Below are positions 4,134-12,077 of a DNA stretch of 28,245 bases, piece by piece. Both the position numbers and the translations under genes were made by a program. Source of the DNA: a virus; UHGV virus genome UHGV-0133447. One strand, given 5' to 3'. The notes below the pieces were generated by a model. The model saw only the letters and a list, made by a program, of their open reading frames with translations. It was not told the origin of the DNA and did no database searches. Position 1 is the first letter of the stretch; every line of letters starts with the position of its first letter.

Positions 4134-4329
4134 CGCTGGCCCCTTTCGTGGCTTCTGCTTTACGTTCTGCCGCGGCGACGCTGGCGGCCGCCTTCTCTTC
4201 GGTGCGCTGCCGGCTGGCTTTCGCTTCTGCTTTACTGGTGCCTCGCGCATGGCCAATGCCGAACGCGCCAGCAATAGCGCCCAGAATGACAACCACCAGC
4301 CCCGCGATAGCTTCTATTCCCATGATCAT
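4048..4329 (-). CDS. putative inner-membrane spanin (Rz-like)
   Basis: 93 aa with N-terminal transmembrane segment (IAGLVVVILGAIAGAFGI) then a charged Ala/Glu/Lys-rich helical region. Start overlaps the endolysin stop (ATGA). The following lipoprotein ORF overlaps its 3' end. Confidence 0.45.
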   Translation of the reverse strand: MIMGIEAIAGLVVVILGAIAGAFGIGHARGTSKAEAKASRQRTEEKAAASVAAAERKAEATKGASDVEESVKRMGDDDVDRELREKFTRPGGG

Positions 4330-4955
4330 CCCACCAGTACCGATTTTGCTTTCAGGAATCGGGCGCGTCGGTCATCAATGCCGTTCTGCCCGCCGTTGAT
4401 AATCTGGGTCACGCGCACTAAATCTCCGTGGTATTTCAAACATCCGTTTGAGGTGTAAAACCAGGCTGCGCTGCGGGCCGCATTAATATATTTCTCCAAC
4501 AACTCAGGGTTGCTGACTAAATCCAGTTTCAGTGCATTACCGCACTTCATATAATTTTCGAGGAAGGTGATCCCGATAATTCCACGCCCGCGGTATTTCC
4601 AGCCATCGCCCGCAGCCTTATTGCCAAAACGATTGTTGTAGACGAGATTAGCGATCGCTCGTTGACGTTCGATCGGTAAAACCTTTTCGTAAGTTTTACG
4701 CCCCAGGGTGTTCGCCTGGTCCTGCGTGATGCGCTTTGCCTTCACAAAACCAGCCAGGCCGGCAACGCTATAGTTAAAACTTTCGACCATCTGGGTAAAT
4801 GACGTGCTTTCGTGTCCACACTGCGCTATGAACATCGCCTGATCGAGTGGAGCTGTAATGCCGAATTCTTTCATCGCAGCATCAATATGCGGAAACCAGC
4901 GCGCAGCTAACCCGGCGCTGATACCAGCCGCCCTTTGAAATTGTGATTGGTTCAT
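4326..4955 (-). CDS. endolysin, glycoside hydrolase family 19 (chitinase-like lysozyme)
   Basis: 209 aa with FIAQCGHESTSF-type motif and overall GH19 endolysin pattern (memory). Flanked by holin-like and spanin-like genes. Confidence 0.85.
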   Translation of the reverse strand: MNQSQFQRAAGISAGLAARWFPHIDAAMKEFGITAPLDQAMFIAQCGHESTSFTQMVESFNYSVAGLAGFVKAKRITQDQANTLGRKTYEKVLPIERQRAIANLVYNNRFGNKAAGDGWKYRGRGIIGITFLENYMKCGNALKLDLVSNPELLEKYINAARSAAWFYTSNGCLKYHGDLVRVTQIINGGQNGIDDRRARFLKAKSVLVG

Positions 4956-5233
4956 CAGTGCCTCAGTGCATCAACCAGTCGCGCCACATTCCCCCTGAAC
5001 CAGAGAACCGCGCCGCAGATAAGAATGTTAGCCAGCACCACCAGCCAGTGGGATGACTCGTACAGGCCAAACAGGAAACGGAAAGGGATGCTGGCATAAA
5101 CCAGCACCATGAGATAAGCCAGAACGGATATGCCCGGACGGTGTCTCGCACTACCTCGTTGGTAGAACATCAATGCCAGCACAATGACGGCGCAAATGAC
5201 TGCATTGGCCAGCGCTGAAGGATCATTTACCAC
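4955..5233 (-). CDS. holin-like small membrane protein
   Basis: 92 aa with three predicted hydrophobic segments and a basic C-terminus. Immediately upstream of the endolysin with a 1-nt start/stop overlap. Confidence 0.55.
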   Translation of the reverse strand: MVNDPSALANAVICAVIVLALMFYQRGSARHRPGISVLAYLMVLVYASIPFRFLFGLYESSHWLVVLANILICGAVLWFRGNVARLVDALRH

Positions 5234-5612
5234 TTGAACCTCCTCCCCGGAACCGGGTCAGCATATTGAACAAGCTATTTAGATCCTGGCTGTTGAGAAA
5301 CGTCAGAACTTTGATGATAAGCGCTGATATTAATACGGCTCCCAACGCATCAAGCGGACGGTCGCTGTAGCCAGTCCAGCTTGAAAGCTTGGAACCCACC
5401 AGACCGGCGCCCAGAACACCAACAATGAATGACGTCATAAAGTATGCCACCAGCTTACCGCGCGATATGTTAGCTGCCGTGGCCACGTAAAAAACCGCCC
5501 CGGCGAACGCACCAAATACCACGCCGTAATCTATTCCGGTAGCCAGACCGAACATGCTAGCCCCCATCAGGCCGCCGGCCGCAACTGAAGTACCAGAGAC
5601 AGGATCGGACAT
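5223..5612 (-). CDS. holin-like membrane protein (possible holin/antiholin partner)
   Basis: 129 aa, Gly/Ala-rich hydrophobic segments, GAGGGGG RBS. First gene of the lysis cassette. Confidence 0.55.
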   Translation of the reverse strand: MSDPVSGTSVAAGGLMGASMFGLATGIDYGVVFGAFAGAVFYVATAANISRGKLVAYFMTSFIVGVLGAGLVGSKLSSWTGYSDRPLDALGAVLISALIIKVLTFLNSQDLNSLFNMLTRFRGGGSSGK

Positions 5613-6493: not shown

Positions 6494-6496
6494 GGC

Positions 6497-6522
6497 CAAA
6501 GAAAAAGCCCACCGAAGTGGGC
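6497..6522 (-). terminator. intrinsic terminator (minus strand) with UUCG-type tetraloop
   Basis: Minus-strand reading ggcccac-ttcg-gtgggc followed by TTTTCTTTGG. Lies downstream of the TerB-like gene. Confidence 0.5.
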
Positions 6523-6896
6523 CTTACAGCTATCATCATTTTTTATTAGGTGTGGTGCCGGGTGCCTCCCGGTAAGTCGCCGCCAGTCCACAGACGACTC
6601 GCAATGCGCAAAAAAACATATCAGACTGGCAATGCCCCTCCGCATAGGGGGATTCACCACACGGATAATTTAGGATGTAGTCATAGGCGGCGTCAATAAC
6701 TGACACTCTGTCAAAGGCATCATTACGATGCCTTTTGCACAGTGCTAATCACTGGATCTAATAAGGGGCCAGAGCAAAGCGATTACCCCGGCTACCAGCA
6801 CGCCATCAGCCAGGATTGACATCATTTTGCTGGTGAAGTCGATAGCAACCACCAGAAACAAAAGCACCCCGGCTGCGGCCCAGCGAAGTTTACCGA

Positions 6897-7322
6897 TCAC
6901 AGGTACTGGTCCAGAGGAAGTTGCAGAGCCTGGGCAATTTTCTTCAGCTGTTTCTCTTCTTCTTCCCCGATGCCGTCGTTATCAGCTACATCAAGACACA
7001 GGCAAAGAACATCGACAGCGTCATCCGTCCCGGCAACGTCAGCCAGTTCGCGCAACGCCTGAGCGTTGGCTGAACGTGGTGATGCTTCATAGCGAGCGCG
7101 AATATTCGAACTCATCTGGGCAATTTCACCAGCAAATGGCGCGAATGCCGGGAGGGCCGAAATAGTCTTCTCCAGCACTGCAATCTCTTTTGCATCGCAG
7201 GTACCATCGGCGTATGCAATCGAGTACGCTCCCCAGACCGTGGCTTCTACGGCATCGCGGTTTTCCATTTTTTTTACTTCAACAACGGCTTTACGGGCTT
7301 TCTTTTTAAAAATACCGAACAT
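6897..7322 (-). CDS. TerB-like domain protein (tellurite-resistance TerB fold), moron candidate
   Basis: Using the ATG for MFGIFKKK...: two acidic motifs (AYADGTCDAKEIAVLEK and VADNDGIGEEEEKQLKKIAQAL) matching the TerB pattern from memory. The track ORF extends to 7403 with an alternative upstream start. Confidence 0.5.
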   Translation of the reverse strand: MFGIFKKKARKAVVEVKKMENRDAVEATVWGAYSIAYADGTCDAKEIAVLEKTISALPAFAPFAGEIAQMSSNIRARYEASPRSANAQALRELADVAGTDDAVDVLCLCLDVADNDGIGEEEEKQLKKIAQALQLPLDQYL

Positions 7323-7341
7323 AATTACGTCTCTCTTTAGT

Positions 7342-7404
7342 GGTGAGCCAACGCTCAGGGATGGTAACCACAAGGCGACGTAATACCGTCCCTCTTGGCT
7401 CACC
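7342..7404 (-). promoter_or_regulatory. long composite hairpin in the leader of the TerB-like gene
   Basis: Outer 10-bp stem ggtgagccaa (7342-7351) / ttggctcacc (7395-7404). Inner 8-bp stem agggatgg (7357-7364) / ccgtccct (7386-7393) with one wobble. Sits between the HNH-AP2 stop and the TerB-like start. Confidence 0.35.
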
Positions 7405-7453
7405 CTGAAAAGTTGTGGTTTTGATTTTTCCGCCGAGCGAGGCGGCTATGAGC

Positions 7454-7954
7454 TTAAATAGATGAAAAATCACCATGGTACTGCCTGGAAGCAGCTACAT
7501 ACGCCCTGTGCGCTTCTTCTTTAGTGTGGAAGCGACCAAGTCGAATTTTTTTCTTTGCAATACTTATTTGCGCAATCCATTTTTTTCTATTGCGGGGGGA
7601 ATCGTTGAAATAGACCCCTTTAAGTCCAGCTGCGTTATTGCTGTGTATCCGTCGATTGCGAGTGTTCTGGTTTTGTGTGCAGAGCCTGAGATTTGTAATA
7701 CGGTTATTCAACTTGTCGCCATCAATATGATCAACAACAAGGGTTGACGGAATTTCACCGTATTTCAAGACCCAAATTATTCGGTGCACACGTATATTCT
7801 TTCCATTGAAGAATACCCTTAAATACCCAGTATCAGTCTTGACGCCAAGAGTGTCGCCAGGACTTTTACTCCCAAAAGGTGACTTGCAATAAAGGATGCC
7901 CGTAGTTTCATCGTATGAAAAAAAGTTCCTAACCGTTTCAAGAGATAGATTCAT
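7454..7954 (-). CDS. HNH homing-type endonuclease with C-terminal AP2-like DNA-binding domain
   Basis: 166 aa. HNH core VVDHIDGDKLNNRITNLRLCTQNQN. C-terminal GVYF...KKWIAQISIAKKKIRLGRFHTKEEAHRAYVAASRQYHGDF resembles AP2 domains (memory). AGGAG RBS. Gene is visibly AT-richer than its flanks. Confidence 0.8.
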   Translation of the reverse strand: MNLSLETVRNFFSYDETTGILYCKSPFGSKSPGDTLGVKTDTGYLRVFFNGKNIRVHRIIWVLKYGEIPSTLVVDHIDGDKLNNRITNLRLCTQNQNTRNRRIHSNNAAGLKGVYFNDSPRNRKKWIAQISIAKKKIRLGRFHTKEEAHRAYVAASRQYHGDFSSI

Positions 7955-8008
7955 GCCTACTCCTGGTATGGGTCCTGTGCTTAAATAACGCCGAGCGTGG
8001 CGCAGATA

Positions 8009-8033
8009 CGAAAAAGGCCCGCGAATGCGAGCC
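8009..8033 (-). terminator. intrinsic terminator-like hairpin (minus strand) upstream of the HNH-AP2 gene
   Basis: Minus-strand reading ggctcgc-attc-gcgggcc (7-bp stem, one G-U pair) followed by TTTTTCG. Confidence 0.45.
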
Positions 8034-8246
8034 TGATGGATCCGCTTACTGATACGGAGCGACCAACCTAAGTTGTCGCAGATTCAAATTGTGGCCCTGC
8101 CTTTAAGTCACTTTGCGCGCAGCTGGGACATGTAGTTTTCGCATCGTGATCGGGATTCGCTTCAGACGCTGGCCCCGCAGCCATTTAAGTGCCGGTTACG
8201 TTTATCCGGCGGCTTTCGCCCGGTTAAGCCCTAAGGTAAGGGATTT

Positions 8247-8505: not shown

Positions 8506-8581
8506 TGGTGCTGGTTGACGGAATCGAACCGCCGACATCCTGCTTACAAGGCAGGCGCTCTACCAGCTGAGCTAAACCAGC
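8506..8581 (-). tRNA. tRNA-Thr (anticodon UGU), phage-encoded
   Basis: Minus-strand 76-nt cloverleaf GCTGGTT-TA-GCTC-AGCTGGTA-GAGC-G-CCTGC-CTTGTAA-GCAGG-ATGTC-GGCGG-TTCGATT-CCGTC-AACCAGC-A-CCA. Acceptor 7 bp, D-loop GG, anticodon loop with U33 and A37, canonical T-loop, encoded CCA. Confidence 0.8.
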
Positions 8582-9621
8582 AAATTACGCATTTCACTGA
8601 CCGTCTGTTCAAATCTCTCGGTTTCCAGTTCGACACCTAGTCCCCTTCGCCCGAGAAGAGCAGCCTGCTTGAGCGTTGAGCCTGATCCAAAAAAGAAATC
8701 AGCTACAACATCACCCGGGCGGCTACTCGCTGTGATTATCTGCTCCAGCATATCCGCAGGCTTTTCACATGGGTGTTTACCTGGATAAAACTGAACAGGC
8801 TTATGAGTCCAGACGTCGGTATATGGCACCGTGACCGATACGCTGAATGGTCGCCGTAAACGGTAATATTCCTGCTGGAGTTCAGAATATTTTCGGCTTA
8901 ACGATTGCCAGGTGCCGACAAGCTGGTGGTGAGGTTTTCCCAGTTCGTTGCGTGAGTGCTTATCCATGGCGATTGTTTGAAACAAAGCCTGCAACTTTAA
9001 ATAATCGGCTTCGTTCGGTAGCTGCCACTGACTAAGGCCAAACCAGTGGGAAACCATATTTTTCTTACCTGTGGCTTCTGCAATCTGAGCCGACGTCACG
9101 CCAAGAGATTCCCGTGCATCACGGAAGTAAGAAATTAAAGGCGTCATGACGTGTTGCTTTAACTCATTACACTTTGCGGCATATCCATCGTCTTTGGGCC
9201 TGTATGGCCCCTGATAATGGTCGGCAAAAATGATACGCTCAGTGGCCGGGAAATAAGCGCGTAAGCTCTCCTTATTGCAGCCGTTCCATCGCCCTGATGG
9301 CTTAGCCCAGATGATATGGTTGAGCAGGTTAAACCGCTCTCTCACCAACAGCTCAATATCCGCTGCCAGGCGGTGCCCACAGAACAGATACATGCTGCCG
9401 GCAGGTTTTAACACTCGCCAGAACTGTGCCAGACAGCTATCCAGCCAACGTAAATAGTCTTCGTCCCCCTTCCATTGGTTATCCCAGCCGTTTGGCTTCA
9501 CCTTAAAATAAGGCGGATCGGTAACAATAAGATCAATGGAGTTATCGGGTAGCGATGGGAGGTATTGCAGGCAATCAGCATTGATTAACTCAATACTGGA
9601 TATTTTTACAGTATTTTTCAT
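8572..9621 (-). CDS. orphan DNA methyltransferase, N6-adenine/N4-cytosine (beta) class
   Basis: 349 aa with TDPPYF catalytic motif near the N-terminus. No adjacent restriction endonuclease. The ORF's last codons overlap the 5' end of the tRNA. Confidence 0.85.
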   Translation of the reverse strand: MKNTVKISSIELINADCLQYLPSLPDNSIDLIVTDPPYFKVKPNGWDNQWKGDEDYLRWLDSCLAQFWRVLKPAGSMYLFCGHRLAADIELLVRERFNLLNHIIWAKPSGRWNGCNKESLRAYFPATERIIFADHYQGPYRPKDDGYAAKCNELKQHVMTPLISYFRDARESLGVTSAQIAEATGKKNMVSHWFGLSQWQLPNEADYLKLQALFQTIAMDKHSRNELGKPHHQLVGTWQSLSRKYSELQQEYYRLRRPFSVSVTVPYTDVWTHKPVQFYPGKHPCEKPADMLEQIITASSRPGDVVADFFFGSGSTLKQAALLGRRGLGVELETERFEQTVSEMRNLLV

Positions 9622-10172: not shown

Positions 10173-11003
10173 TTATGCGATATTTATCAAATCAGGCACC
10201 TTTGTCACACGTTTAAGCTGTGAGTCGGTATAACTCTCTTCCTCAAAGCATCTTGTAACCAGACTTTCATAGAAAGGTTTCCAGCTATATCGCCAGGTAC
10301 GTTCTGGCAGACCAGGCAGCTCAGAGAGCATACCCCTGTATGCATTCGAAGACTTAGGACGACTATAACCGCGGCCTTCACAACGTTTACACACTTTGTA
10401 GACAGGCACTCCCTGCAGCTCTGACTCTTTACGGTCCAGGGTTTTTCCCGTACCGCCACACTGGCATCGCTTGCTGATTTTCCCGGTGCCGCCACATTTG
10501 AAGCAAAGAACATGGTCAACCTCTTCCACCTGACGTTTTACTTCAAAATCCGAAGGTGACTGCCTGAGGTCTTTTGCCCATTGCGGTAATCTCATTGTGT
10601 AGTGGCTTTTTTCCACCATTGAGGTTTTTTTTATGAAGCCTGAACCAGAACACTTCCTGCAATCTACGCTGTCAGCTGCAGACGAGGCATAGTCGTTATA
10701 AGCGAACCGAGCTATTATCAGCATACACAGCGGGAACTTCTTCCCTGCTGCTTTTCTTATCGATCGAGGCGCTTTTGATTTTGCATATTCAGCCAACCAA
10801 CTGACGGATGCCTTTCTGTCGTGTTCGCTGATTCCAGCTTTACCCAAAAACATTGACAGGCCTATTCCTGCCTCTGCCTGTGTCATCCCCAGAGCCGCCA
10901 TTACATCTGTCACAGTAAGTTGCTCGCTGGCGGTTGCAAGACCGCTATCGGAAATATGCATTCCTTTGGGCGCAAAAAATTTGGGAATTGATTCAATATT
11001 CAT
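10173..11003 (-). CDS. late-gene antitermination protein Q-like (Cys-rich, zinc-binding type)
   Basis: Repeated Cys pairs CRKCSGSG / CFKCGGTGK / CQCGGTGK / CKRCEGRG. Position directly upstream of promoter plus terminator and adjacent to DUF968 resembles Qin-type Q (memory). ATG at 11003 has a GGAG RBS; the track's GTG at 11021 is an alternative start. Confidence 0.65.
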   Translation of the reverse strand: MNIESIPKFFAPKGMHISDSGLATASEQLTVTDVMAALGMTQAEAGIGLSMFLGKAGISEHDRKASVSWLAEYAKSKAPRSIRKAAGKKFPLCMLIIARFAYNDYASSAADSVDCRKCSGSGFIKKTSMVEKSHYTMRLPQWAKDLRQSPSDFEVKRQVEEVDHVLCFKCGGTGKISKRCQCGGTGKTLDRKESELQGVPVYKVCKRCEGRGYSRPKSSNAYRGMLSELPGLPERTWRYSWKPFYESLVTRCFEEESYTDSQLKRVTKVPDLINIA

Positions 11004-11021
11004 GCTCAGTACTCCATACAC

Positions 11022-12077
11022 TCAAGCTTTTACAATGACGCCGATACCCATTACCCGATCCAGAAAACGAGCCCACAGCTCTAACTGAGTGCCATATTTC
11101 TTTTCGAACTCTGATGTATTGGCGTGTAATTCATCGTGATGCACTCTGCACAGTGGTATCACGAAGAGATCATGGGCCTTGGTGCCAGTTCCCCCCAGAC
11201 CATTCCCTATTATATGGTGTGGATCGTCTGAAGGTTGCCTACAGCATTCACATGGCTGAGTTTTAACCCAACGTGTGTAAACTTCGCAGGTCCAGCGCCG
11301 GCGCTTTGGGCGGCGCATAAATGATTCGGGGCTGTTCGGATCGACACTAAGCCTCAGAATGGGTTTACTTTCAATCTGAGGTTGCTCAATGAGTACACTG
11401 GCGTCCGCCAGGTCTATGCCCTCGACAAGATCCTGAAGGATTTCACCTGCAGCTAATGACGGGACAATATCGCTATCCTTATAAACGGACAGGAAAGGTT
11501 CCTCAGGCAGTCTTAAGGCCTGTTGCGCCATCGTCTCGGTTATTGCGTCAGCAATGCCGGATTTCACGGCCCACCAGCAGAGCTCCGCCATCGATAATTC
11601 GCGCTCCTTATTGTATCCAAGGCTGATCAACACCCTTTCAATCACCCACTGAACCAGATTCTGATAAGCCAGCTCTGACAACATTTCGGTGGTCTGCTCA
11701 CGTAATTCATTATCACAATGCCAGCAGACAACCATGGCGCCAGGCGGATGCCGCATAGTCACTAATTCATGGTGGTGATAGTGGGAATGCGGGTACTGGC
11801 ACTCTCTGACATGTCGTAGAAGCCAGGCCTCAAGAGCGTTAATTCCACCAGCTGCGTTAATAACCCTCTCATCCCTCATGAAAAAACGCAGAATGTCCAT
11901 TTCTGCAAGCGGCTGACGTGCATCGGCGATCCGCCCAGTGGGCAGTGTTTTCATCTTCTCTGGCTGGCGCTCTATCAGGACACGACCGCCGGTAAAGAGA
12001 GACATCAATTCGCGGCCTGGTTTAAAAAGAACAACGCCCAGGCGCGGAACAATTTCCGGAGTTAGCAATGCCCGCAC
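11022..12077 (-). CDS. DUF968-family phage protein (YdfU-like) with C-terminal HNH-like Cys/His motif
   Basis: 351 aa from a GTG start. C-terminal CECC...DPHHII...IPLCRVHHDELH motif. Length and position before Q resemble YdfU of lambdoid prophages (memory). Confidence 0.6.
   Translation of the reverse strand: MRALLTPEIVPRLGVVLFKPGRELMSLFTGGRVLIERQPEKMKTLPTGRIADARQPLAEMDILRFFMRDERVINAAGGINALEAWLLRHVRECQYPHSHYHHHELVTMRHPPGAMVVCWHCDNELREQTTEMLSELAYQNLVQWVIERVLISLGYNKERELSMAELCWWAVKSGIADAITETMAQQALRLPEEPFLSVYKDSDIVPSLAAGEILQDLVEGIDLADASVLIEQPQIESKPILRLSVDPNSPESFMRRPKRRRWTCEVYTRWVKTQPCECCRQPSDDPHHIIGNGLGGTGTKAHDLFVIPLCRVHHDELHANTSEFEKKYGTQLELWARFLDRVMGIGVIVKA

Follow-up and report, generated by a model that had tools for sequence, protein, structure and literature searches.

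The 63-nt hairpin that precedes a TerB-family, tciA-like gene in UHGV virus genome UHGV-0133447 (analysed as a single stretch of 28,245 nucleotides, "the window" in what follows) is very probably the core of something larger: a structured, non-coding leader RNA of ~125 nt, doubly pseudoknotted and read from the minus strand, which is the coding strand here. The hairpin supplies helices P1 and P2 of this RNA. Judged by comparison of sequences, the leader appears to be an undescribed, well-supported structured RNA family, widespread in enterobacterial phages, and its distribution marks it as a portable module for accessory genes that is not tied to TerB. The protein part of the locus is already known: it is an ordinary phage tciA/TerB moron. 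The importance of the finding accordingly rests on the leader, not on TerB. The elements of the leader are these (window coordinates):

7323-7445, minus strand: complete leader RNA, from P0 to the base before the AUG (covariance model R1 match at 7320-7451, 99.1 bits, E 2e-24)
7430-7445, minus strand: P0 hairpin CCGCC-UCGCUC-GGCGG, 5 bp with a 6-nt loop (5/5 pairs compensatory, 99% of cells paired)
7439-7435, minus strand: 5' strand of pseudoknot PK2, CGCUC, in the P0 loop (from the PK2 pairing classes)
7413-7420, minus strand: 5' strand of pseudoknot PK1, AACCACAA (core CCACAA), the reverse complement of UUGUGGUU at 7373-7366
7409-7412, minus strand: pyrimidine tract CUUU, candidate anti-Shine-Dalgarno (anti-SD) sequence and linker (pairs with AAAG at 7338-7335 in the minimum free energy (MFE) fold)
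7342-7404, minus strand: the 63-nt hairpin, made up of P1, P2 and an apical region (fold compared with shuffles; conservation in relatives)
7404-7395 and 7351-7342, minus strand: helix P1 (sequence nearly invariant, with compensatory changes in divergent copies)
7392-7389 and 7361-7358, minus strand: helix P2 (some variants add an optional P3)
7366-7373, minus strand: 3' strand of PK1, UUGUGGUU, in the apical region (pairs with AACCACAA)
7352-7356, minus strand: 3' strand of PK2, GAGCG, on the 3' side of the asymmetric internal loop between P2 and P1 (pairs with CGCUC of the P0 loop)
7323-7341, minus strand: Shine-Dalgarno (SD) region ACUAAAGAGAGACGUAAUU, between P1 and the AUG (from the P1-AUG spacing)

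The original prediction, made from the window alone, had described a two-tier hairpin in the leader of a TerB gene, with a 10-bp outer and an 8-bp inner stem. The hairpin is real, and its outer stem (GGUGAGCCAA/UUGGCUCACC) has the 10 bp: the MFE is -31.4 kcal/mol as against -17.6 +/- 2.7 in 200 dinucleotide shuffles (z = -5.14), none of which is as stable. The inner tier fares less well: its 8 bp (GGGA.GGUA/UACC.UCCC) are interrupted by one mismatch, and the GGUA/UACC extension is not conserved, the same segment forming the optional P3 hairpin or part of PK1 in relatives. The hairpin as such is conserved in relatives, and an exact-match scan of IMG/VR for the outer-stem pattern GGTGAGCCA N30-55 TGGCTCACC yields at least 120 loci; among the matches listed, the end of the hairpin always lies 17-20 nt from the start codon. 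The conserved block reaches ~45 nt farther in the 5' direction, mostly starting right after an intrinsic terminator of variable sequence. The hairpin does, then, sit 5' of tciA as predicted; what has to be amended is that it is only the core of a double-pseudoknot leader common to many unrelated genes. A role as intrinsic terminator or attenuator, the latter one of two functions that had been proposed for it, is ruled out: no U-tract follows the hairpin (the sequence 3' of P1 is ACUAAAGAGAG in the window and CGCUAAAAGG in relatives), and the terminator scan does not list it.

The case for the complete fold is made by covariation. When 27 representatives are aligned with MAFFT, 90.5% of cells are paired, as against 39-46% when the partners are slid, and 12 pairs change on both sides (5.4 +/- 1.7 in shuffles; 0/500 reach 12). 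Aligning 56 hits, 54 of them distinct, to covariance model R1 (whose searches covered the loci fetched for comparison) gives 91.7% of cells paired as against 37-47% with partners slid, 23 pairs changed on both sides (14.8 +/- 1.7 in shuffles; 0/500 reach 23) and double changes in 155 cells (44 +/- 6 in shuffles). R1 contains neither PK1 nor PK2; support for these two pairings is consequently independent of the method of alignment. Compensatory pairs in the R1-aligned set are spread over P0 (5/5), PK1 (5/8), PK2 (3/5) and P1 (4/9); the lower half of P1 (GUGA/UCAC) never varies. One PK2 column pair, 16/139, is CG in 31 sequences, UA in 20, AU in 3, and unpaired in none.

The pseudoknots can also be followed class by class across the loci. 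PK1 is represented by at least 12 covarying classes: CCACAA/UUGUGG in the window; elsewhere CCACAGAG/CUCUGUGG, CCUCAGAG/CUCUGAGG, CCAUGGAG/CUCCAUGG, CCUGCAGA/UCUGCAGG and CCGUAGAG/CUCUACGG, as well as CGCAGAG/CUCUGCG, CAGAGAG/CUCUCUG, CUGAGAA/UUCUCAG, CGAUAAC/GUUAUCG and CGAGAG/CUCUCG. The classes of PK2 are CGCUC/GAGCG, CGCCC/GGGCG, GUGCC/GGCAC, UGCCC/GGGCA, UUCCC/GGGAA, UCGCAC/GUGCGA and UGACAC/GUGUCA. (A technical note: matching cognate against non-cognate PK1 strands with G-U pairs allowed is uninformative as a control, chance helices of 6 bp or more being common; the support lies in the alignment statistics and the class lists.)

That selection acts on RNA, and on the RNA of the coding strand, follows from three observations: R1 scores are strand-specific (80-156 bits forward, 13-25 bits in reverse), G-U pairs are frequent in the leader helices, and hairpin lengths, which range from 54 to 68 nt across loci, differ by non-multiples of 3. 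The same length differences make the hairpin region non-coding. A GTG inside the hairpin is the start of the mechanical open reading frame (ORF) 6897-7403; a coding extension from this GTG at 7403 is ruled out by the hairpin lengths and by the homologues, which begin at the ATG. The true start is the ATG at 7322, since all homologues start MFG(I/F)FKKK exactly there (MFGIFKKK in the window protein).

Is the leader a member of a known family? Searched against Rfam 15, it has no match at gathering score in the window, none at E <= 10 in the segment 7200-7600, and none at E <= 5 at five variant loci, while the STnc100 RNA and tRNAs at these loci are recovered as expected. The Rfam models of pistol and other self-cleaving ribozymes do not match it. 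Neither ARAGORN (whose only call is the tRNA-Thr at 8506-8581) nor the Rfam tRNA model finds a tRNA-like structure at the leader, and full-text literature searches turned up no description of it. A resemblance of another kind may be recorded here: the 3' strand of P1 with its neighbours (...GGCUC-A-CC; 7342-7356 and relatives) looks like the 3' strand of a tRNA acceptor followed by discriminator and CC, and PK2 (5 bp) placed on the upper part of P1 (6-7 bp) would stack to ~12 bp in the manner of an acceptor/T-arm. Mimicry of an RNase P substrate by this stack is speculative, and inconsistent between the subfamilies of the leader.

The leader is found in front of quite different genes. At loci with the exact stem, the cargo is the window's type of TerB, a second TerB subfamily that is ~40% identical, or an unrelated secreted, periplasmic protein of 280 aa (NMT1_3, PF16868); nearly every lambdoid NMT1_3 gene that was fetched has the leader 5' of it. 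Phages JLK-2012 and Evi have it also. In Erwinia jumbo phages (~240 kb, lytic) a tRNA gene is directly followed by the leader and then by TerB; next comes a TciB-like gene in ChrisDB, and an NMT1_3 gene lies a little downstream in Huxley- and Caitlin-like contigs. TerB and NMT1_3 are thus alternative cargo in lambdoid phages and co-occur in the Erwinia jumbo phages, where the leader copies are the following (coordinates in the fetched loci):

L419, 1362-1503: Erwinia jumbo phage leader copy
L273, 681-822: Erwinia jumbo phage leader copy
L281, 701-829: Erwinia jumbo phage leader copy
L285, 682-824: Erwinia jumbo phage leader copy

A second, more divergent subfamily of the leader has a different P1 (GUGAGCCUG/CAGGCUCAC) and the same layout of P0, PK1, PK2 and SD. 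Many lambdoid contigs have it at a distance of a few kb from the first copy; in phi80 it is found after the lysis cassette. Its cargo falls into at least 10 unrelated protein clusters (tail-tip-like, GT2-like, HNH-like and small proteins among them). Overall, the leader precedes at least 13 unrelated cargo families. The phi80 prophage of E. coli TOP10/DH5alpha-type strains has two subfamily-2 leaders (locus L299, 1407-1543 and 3001-3120), one in front of a Rha-family regulator, the other in front of a 242-aa protein with a weak tail-tip match. Among complete E. coli genomes, 123/5426 have subfamily 2 and 13/5426 the type-A form, counted at the level of megablast. Data with one genome per species contain the exact type-1 pattern in 10 contigs, nine from Enterobacterales and one, of 700 bp, labelled Kocuria, which is probably contamination; with only ten species representatives matching, nine of them Enterobacterales, the leader is taxonomically narrow.

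It was not found at the TerB genes of phage P1, an N4-like Salmonella phage, and Pseudomonas and Pantoea phages. A TerB-specific leader is ruled out on two counts: some TerB genes are without it, and unrelated genes carry it. One locus (L223, 1440-1503 and 2147-2282) holds a TerB gene that follows a terminator and has no leader, and also a divergent leader (PK1 CGAGAG/CUCUCG) 5' of a 50-aa Cys-rich, NinF-like peptide. The leader usually stands right behind a tRNA gene or an intrinsic terminator; its sites are the classic moron slots, from Q to lysis and from lysis to terminase.

The window also has the remains of an older leader copy, into which an endonuclease gene is inserted:

7454-7954, minus strand: HNH_3 + AP2 endonuclease gene (HNH_3 74 bits; AP2 30.1 bits, below its cutoff of 33.3 bits)
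7971-8034, minus strand: intrinsic terminator at 8034-8011, remnant type-A P0 at 8003-7988 and degenerate PK1 strand at 7980-7971 (terminator scan; R1 partial match at 7944-8009, 29 bits)

The HNH gene starts (ATG at 7954) after the degenerate PK1 strand of an older leader copy, and the complete, type-B leader lies 3' of its stop. The same layout recurs in several IMG/VR contigs, being seen at loci L009, L044, L089, L130, L149 and L143; at L208 the HNH gene is absent and the type-B leader present. This suggests the conserved DNA of the leader as a possible target for insertion or homing. Different cargo is also found joined to identical leader variants, a pattern suggestive of recombination at the boundary between leader and cargo.

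The genes behind the leader are:

6897-7322, minus strand: tciA-like gene, TerB family, 141 aa (ATG 7322-7320, stop 6897; Pfam, PHROG, identity to phage P1 TciA)
6745-6900, minus strand: tciB-like small membrane protein, DUF3927, overlapping the tciA stop (Pfam 51.7 bits; phrog_1470 'TciB-like', E 1.9e-22)

That the first of these encodes a TerB-like protein, as had been predicted, is borne out. The window protein matches the Pfam TerB domain (PF05099) with 30.0 bits, above the curated gathering cutoff of 24.4 (E 7.1e-7), in an alignment that is partial (residues 15-57 onto profile positions 64-106 of 118); leader-linked TerB paralogues reach 48-58 bits over profile positions 3-109. Over its full length the window protein matches PHROG 632 ('tellurite resistance'; E 3.6e-64), and its identity to TciA of phage P1 is 84.4%. 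A phmmer search of PDB sequences found no TerB structure, its only matches being spurious ones to centrin. Resistance to tellurite, colicin or phage is the putative function of the tciA-like protein. The arrangement is that of phage P1: a TciA orthologue, then directly a small DUF3927 membrane protein. PHROG 632 and PHROG 1470 are both annotated as morons, and tblastn finds TerB homologues in 82 phage records.

The window itself is a Klebsiella lambdoid prophage and is 99% identical to Klebsiella phage Kp4866-6 across the stretch. The minus-strand order is: Q-like antiterminator, terminator, phrog_331 gene, N6/N4 methylase, tRNA-Thr; then the terminator at 8034-8011, HNH_3+AP2 endonuclease, leader, tciA, tciB, STnc100-family RNA, holin and GH19 endolysin. 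The outlying members are:

10173-11021, minus strand: Q-like late antiterminator, upstream (phrog_127, E 1.8e-94)
10090-10071, minus strand: terminator-like site just downstream of the Q-like gene (terminator scan)
6494-6691, minus strand: STnc100-family RNA closing the cassette (Rfam RF02076, 100.7 bits; gathering score 47)
4326-5612, minus strand: lysis cassette, downstream (holin 5223-5612, Phage_holin_8, 143 bits; GH19 endolysin 4326-4955, Glyco_hydro_19, 31 bits)

A tciA gene between Q and the lysis genes is found again in E. coli phages LMessi, JLK-2012 and Evi and in Klebsiella phages 1 and 5 LV-2017, followed by an annotated tciB in LMessi and JLK-2012 and by a small unnamed ORF in Evi. 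The original prediction had placed TerB-fold proteins usually in clusters for tellurite/stress resistance or defence, and not in phage late regions. With an orthologue in phage P1, a moron PHROG, 82 phage records and the same Q-to-lysis slot shared among lambdoid phages, a TerB-like gene in this place is ordinary instead.

Some further observations on the neighbourhood: the STnc100-family RNA lies directly 3' of tciB, and its first hairpin (UGCAAAAGGCAUC...GAUGCCUUUGACAGA) is found 3' of most cassettes at other loci, whether the cargo is TerB or NMT1_3; a small hydrophobic ORF stands 3' of each cargo gene examined for downstream content. Within the accessory region from Q to lysis, the tRNA-Thr(TGT) at 8506-8581 (minus strand) overlaps the final bases of the ORF for the N6/N4 DNA methylase (8572-9621). 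Directly upstream of Q is another HNH endonuclease gene, a large one (11022-12077, minus strand; phrog_96, E 1e-150), which makes two free-standing HNH genes in the region. On the plus strand, 21918-22043 matches the Rfam tRNA model (126 nt, 40 bits) and is not called by ARAGORN; a tRNA that is disrupted or contains an intron is one possible reading, a tRNA-like remnant of an att site another.

What does the leader do? Its action is probably post-transcriptional and in cis, on the gene that follows: its distance from the AUG stays the same between TerB proteins with only ~40% identity, and with unrelated cargo too (P1-to-AUG spacing is 12-20 nt in all copies). A more specific suggestion, offered tentatively as quite possible and as the likeliest of the mechanisms considered, is that this portable cis module gates the SD, with the pseudoknot fold competing against an SD-sequestering helix. 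In a rod conformer, the (C)CUUU tract would pair with AAAG(G) of the SD, lengthening P1 and occluding the ribosome site; in the pseudoknot conformer the same tract would be a linker by which PK1 can extend to the apex, and the SD would be free. The PK1 and anti-SD pairings use adjacent nucleotides and would engage opposite ends of a rod of ~20 bp; they should therefore be mutually exclusive. The lambdoid cargo genes would be transcribed mainly by Q-modified polymerase running through terminators (accessory-gene units are typically bracketed by these), and the fold of the leader would set the share of the late, Q-antiterminated transcript that is translated into cargo protein. The pyrimidine tract is CCUUU in most relatives; it pairs with AAAG(G) in the MFE folds of the window copy and of one type-A copy, and SD bases pair with it at p > 0.5 in 179/216 unique leaders (nested ensemble).

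Several considerations weigh against SD gating: 1) The anti-SD helix covaries in only 1/5 pairs, covariation being nearly nil because the SD is itself constrained. 2) Conservation of the tract could equally reflect a role as linker or in tertiary structure. 3) The mutual exclusion of PK1 and anti-SD pairing is a geometric argument and not a computed result. 4) Gating does not account for the near-invariance of P1, which points to a tertiary contact or to a protein or nuclease that recognises it. 5) A scan of the window copy, the only one scanned, found no σ70-like promoter 5' of the leader; in relatives the leader begins a few nt after the upstream terminator, which leaves little room for one.

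The conservation of P1 beyond the needs of pairing speaks for a different, and on the whole doubtful, proposal: that the leader is a signal for processing or insulation, cut by RNase III, RNase P or RNase E, or by itself as a self-cleaving ribozyme of a new kind, so as to free an accessory mRNA, with a defined 5' end, from the long late transcript and to remove the anti-SD tract. An insulator is expected to be generic, and at least 13 unrelated cargo families make the leader so; the leader occupies the same slots as phage tRNA genes, often directly after a tRNA or terminator. The rod of the nested fold, ~22-27 bp and interrupted by loops, has a length compatible with RNase III (about two helical turns, 20 bp or more). 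As a compact double pseudoknot with many conserved unpaired bases the leader resembles small ribozymes, and its pairing of a loop with an internal loop is topologically pistol-like, but no ribozyme or other Rfam match appears even at E <= 5-10, ARAGORN calls no tRNA-like gene at the leader, and the RNase P resemblance is numerology that differs between the two subfamilies. A bolder version of these ideas, which we think unlikely, makes the leader a new class of catalytic or switchable RNA, either a self-cleaving, RiboJ-like insulator or a factor-responsive double-pseudoknot riboregulator: a universal expression adaptor with which enterobacterial phages, phi80 and the jumbo Erwinia phages among them, would plug promoterless accessory genes into late transcripts.

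Invariant bases may also be there to be recognised. The RNA might be a translational operator at which a phage or host protein binds the P1 and junction bases and traps or releases the ribosome; parallels are known in S4 at the double pseudoknot that leads the alpha operon, in S15 at rpsO and in Com of phage Mu at the mom leader. GUGA/UCAC of P1 and the junction sequences stay invariant while other helices covary, the double pseudoknot adjoins the SD, and the presence of one element 5' of many genes of a single stage of the phage life cycle, with two copies in phi80, suggests a shared regulator. Against this, no candidate binding protein consistently co-occurs with the leader, whose hosts are jumbo lytic phages as well as lambdoid phages that differ in the type of their Q. 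A protein-binding operator is distinctly unlikely in our estimation. A simpler device, a constitutive 5' stabiliser and translation enhancer whose knotted fold and P0 block 5'-end-dependent RNase E and present the SD with no switching, would suit the generic cargo, a P0 that forms the very 5' end, right behind terminators or tRNAs, and an SD that lies outside the fold. It is nevertheless improbable: it leaves the conserved propensity for anti-SD pairing unexplained, and simple protection has no need of two covarying pseudoknots.

A riboswitch that senses a metabolite or ion connected with TerB chemistry (tellurite or metal stress, or a nucleoside-like ligand) is very improbable. The leader has the complexity of an aptamer (two pseudoknots and conserved junctions), and the SD-occluding alternative looks like an expression platform, but the cargo is unrelated from case to case (TerB, NMT1_3 binding protein, tail-tip-like protein, GT2-like enzyme, Rha regulator, NinF-like peptide), the TerB genes of phage P1 and of N4-like, Pseudomonas and Pantoea phages do without a leader, and no known riboswitch family matches. 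Hardly credible, finally, is an element of DNA only (a recombination linker or homing site at the boundary of an exchangeable cassette, with no RNA function): identical leader variants joined to different cargo and the HNH gene inserted in a leader copy in the window speak for it, but covarying helices with G-U pairs, a strand-specific signal and two covarying long-range pairings largely refute it as the sole explanation, and a DNA-level role may be an addition to that of the RNA.

Why should one care which of these is right, SD gating included? No Rfam 15 family describes the leader, strongly covarying and doubly pseudoknotted as it is, and it occurs in classical, heavily used phages (phi80) and in lytic jumbo phages alike. 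It offers a testable handle on the way in which promoterless, terminator-bracketed phage accessory genes are expressed and insulated. If it proves to process or insulate transcripts, or to work as a switch of translation in general, synthetic biology would have in it a natural part ready for use.

Comparison with known systems may begin at the locus itself. The tciA-tciB(-tciC) genes of phage P1, labelled 'tellurite or colicin resistance / inhibition of cell division', are a close counterpart, with a TciA that is 84% identical to the window's, where the tciA stop is overlapped by the DUF3927 TciB-like gene; the upstream region in phage P1 is another one, without the leader, and the function of P1 tciA is assigned by homology only, according to a note in its record. 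The STnc100/PasD small RNA (sRNA) family (RF02076) shares the cassette with the leader: in the window as in relatives it comes directly behind tciB, as an RNA of its own that closes the 3' end of the cassette and brings its own terminator. A preprint on prophage Pas sRNAs notes that TerB genes occur close to PasA and PasC and relates PasD to STnc100; its accessible part does not mention a 5' leader (bioRxiv 10.64898/2026.05.13.724894). With riboswitches the leader shares a conserved, covarying structured element at a fixed short distance 5' of a gene; the downstream genes, in contrast, form no coherent functional class that points to a ligand.

RNase III sites in phage leaders, such as those of the lambda N leader and the intercistronic sites of T7, at which cleavage could unmask an SD, are likewise long imperfect hairpins with internal loops just 5' of a cistron, but they are not known to have two covarying pseudoknots or a 5' hairpin. 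Cis-acting antiterminator RNAs (HK022 put, Bacillus EAR) are structured elements of phage or operon transcripts near terminators, as the leader is; the latter differs in being situated downstream of a terminator, in abutting the SD and in occurring also in jumbo lytic phages, and no similarity was found for it in Rfam. Pistol (RF02679), twister and hatchet ribozymes resemble it in size (~60-110 nt), in phage association and in having pseudoknots in which an internal loop takes part. In pistol, too, the loop of a 5' hairpin pairs with an internal loop, but the partner strand is on the other side of that internal loop; the leader has a second pseudoknot besides, and no Rfam match at permissive E-values. 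Akin in design are the double-pseudoknot translational operators of E. coli, the alpha-operon leader with S4 and the rpsO pseudoknot with S15: there as here, nested or double pseudoknots immediately 5' of the SD are able to control access of the 30S subunit. Their sequences are unrelated to that of the leader, and each autoregulates one operon, whereas the leader is portable and stands before many genes.

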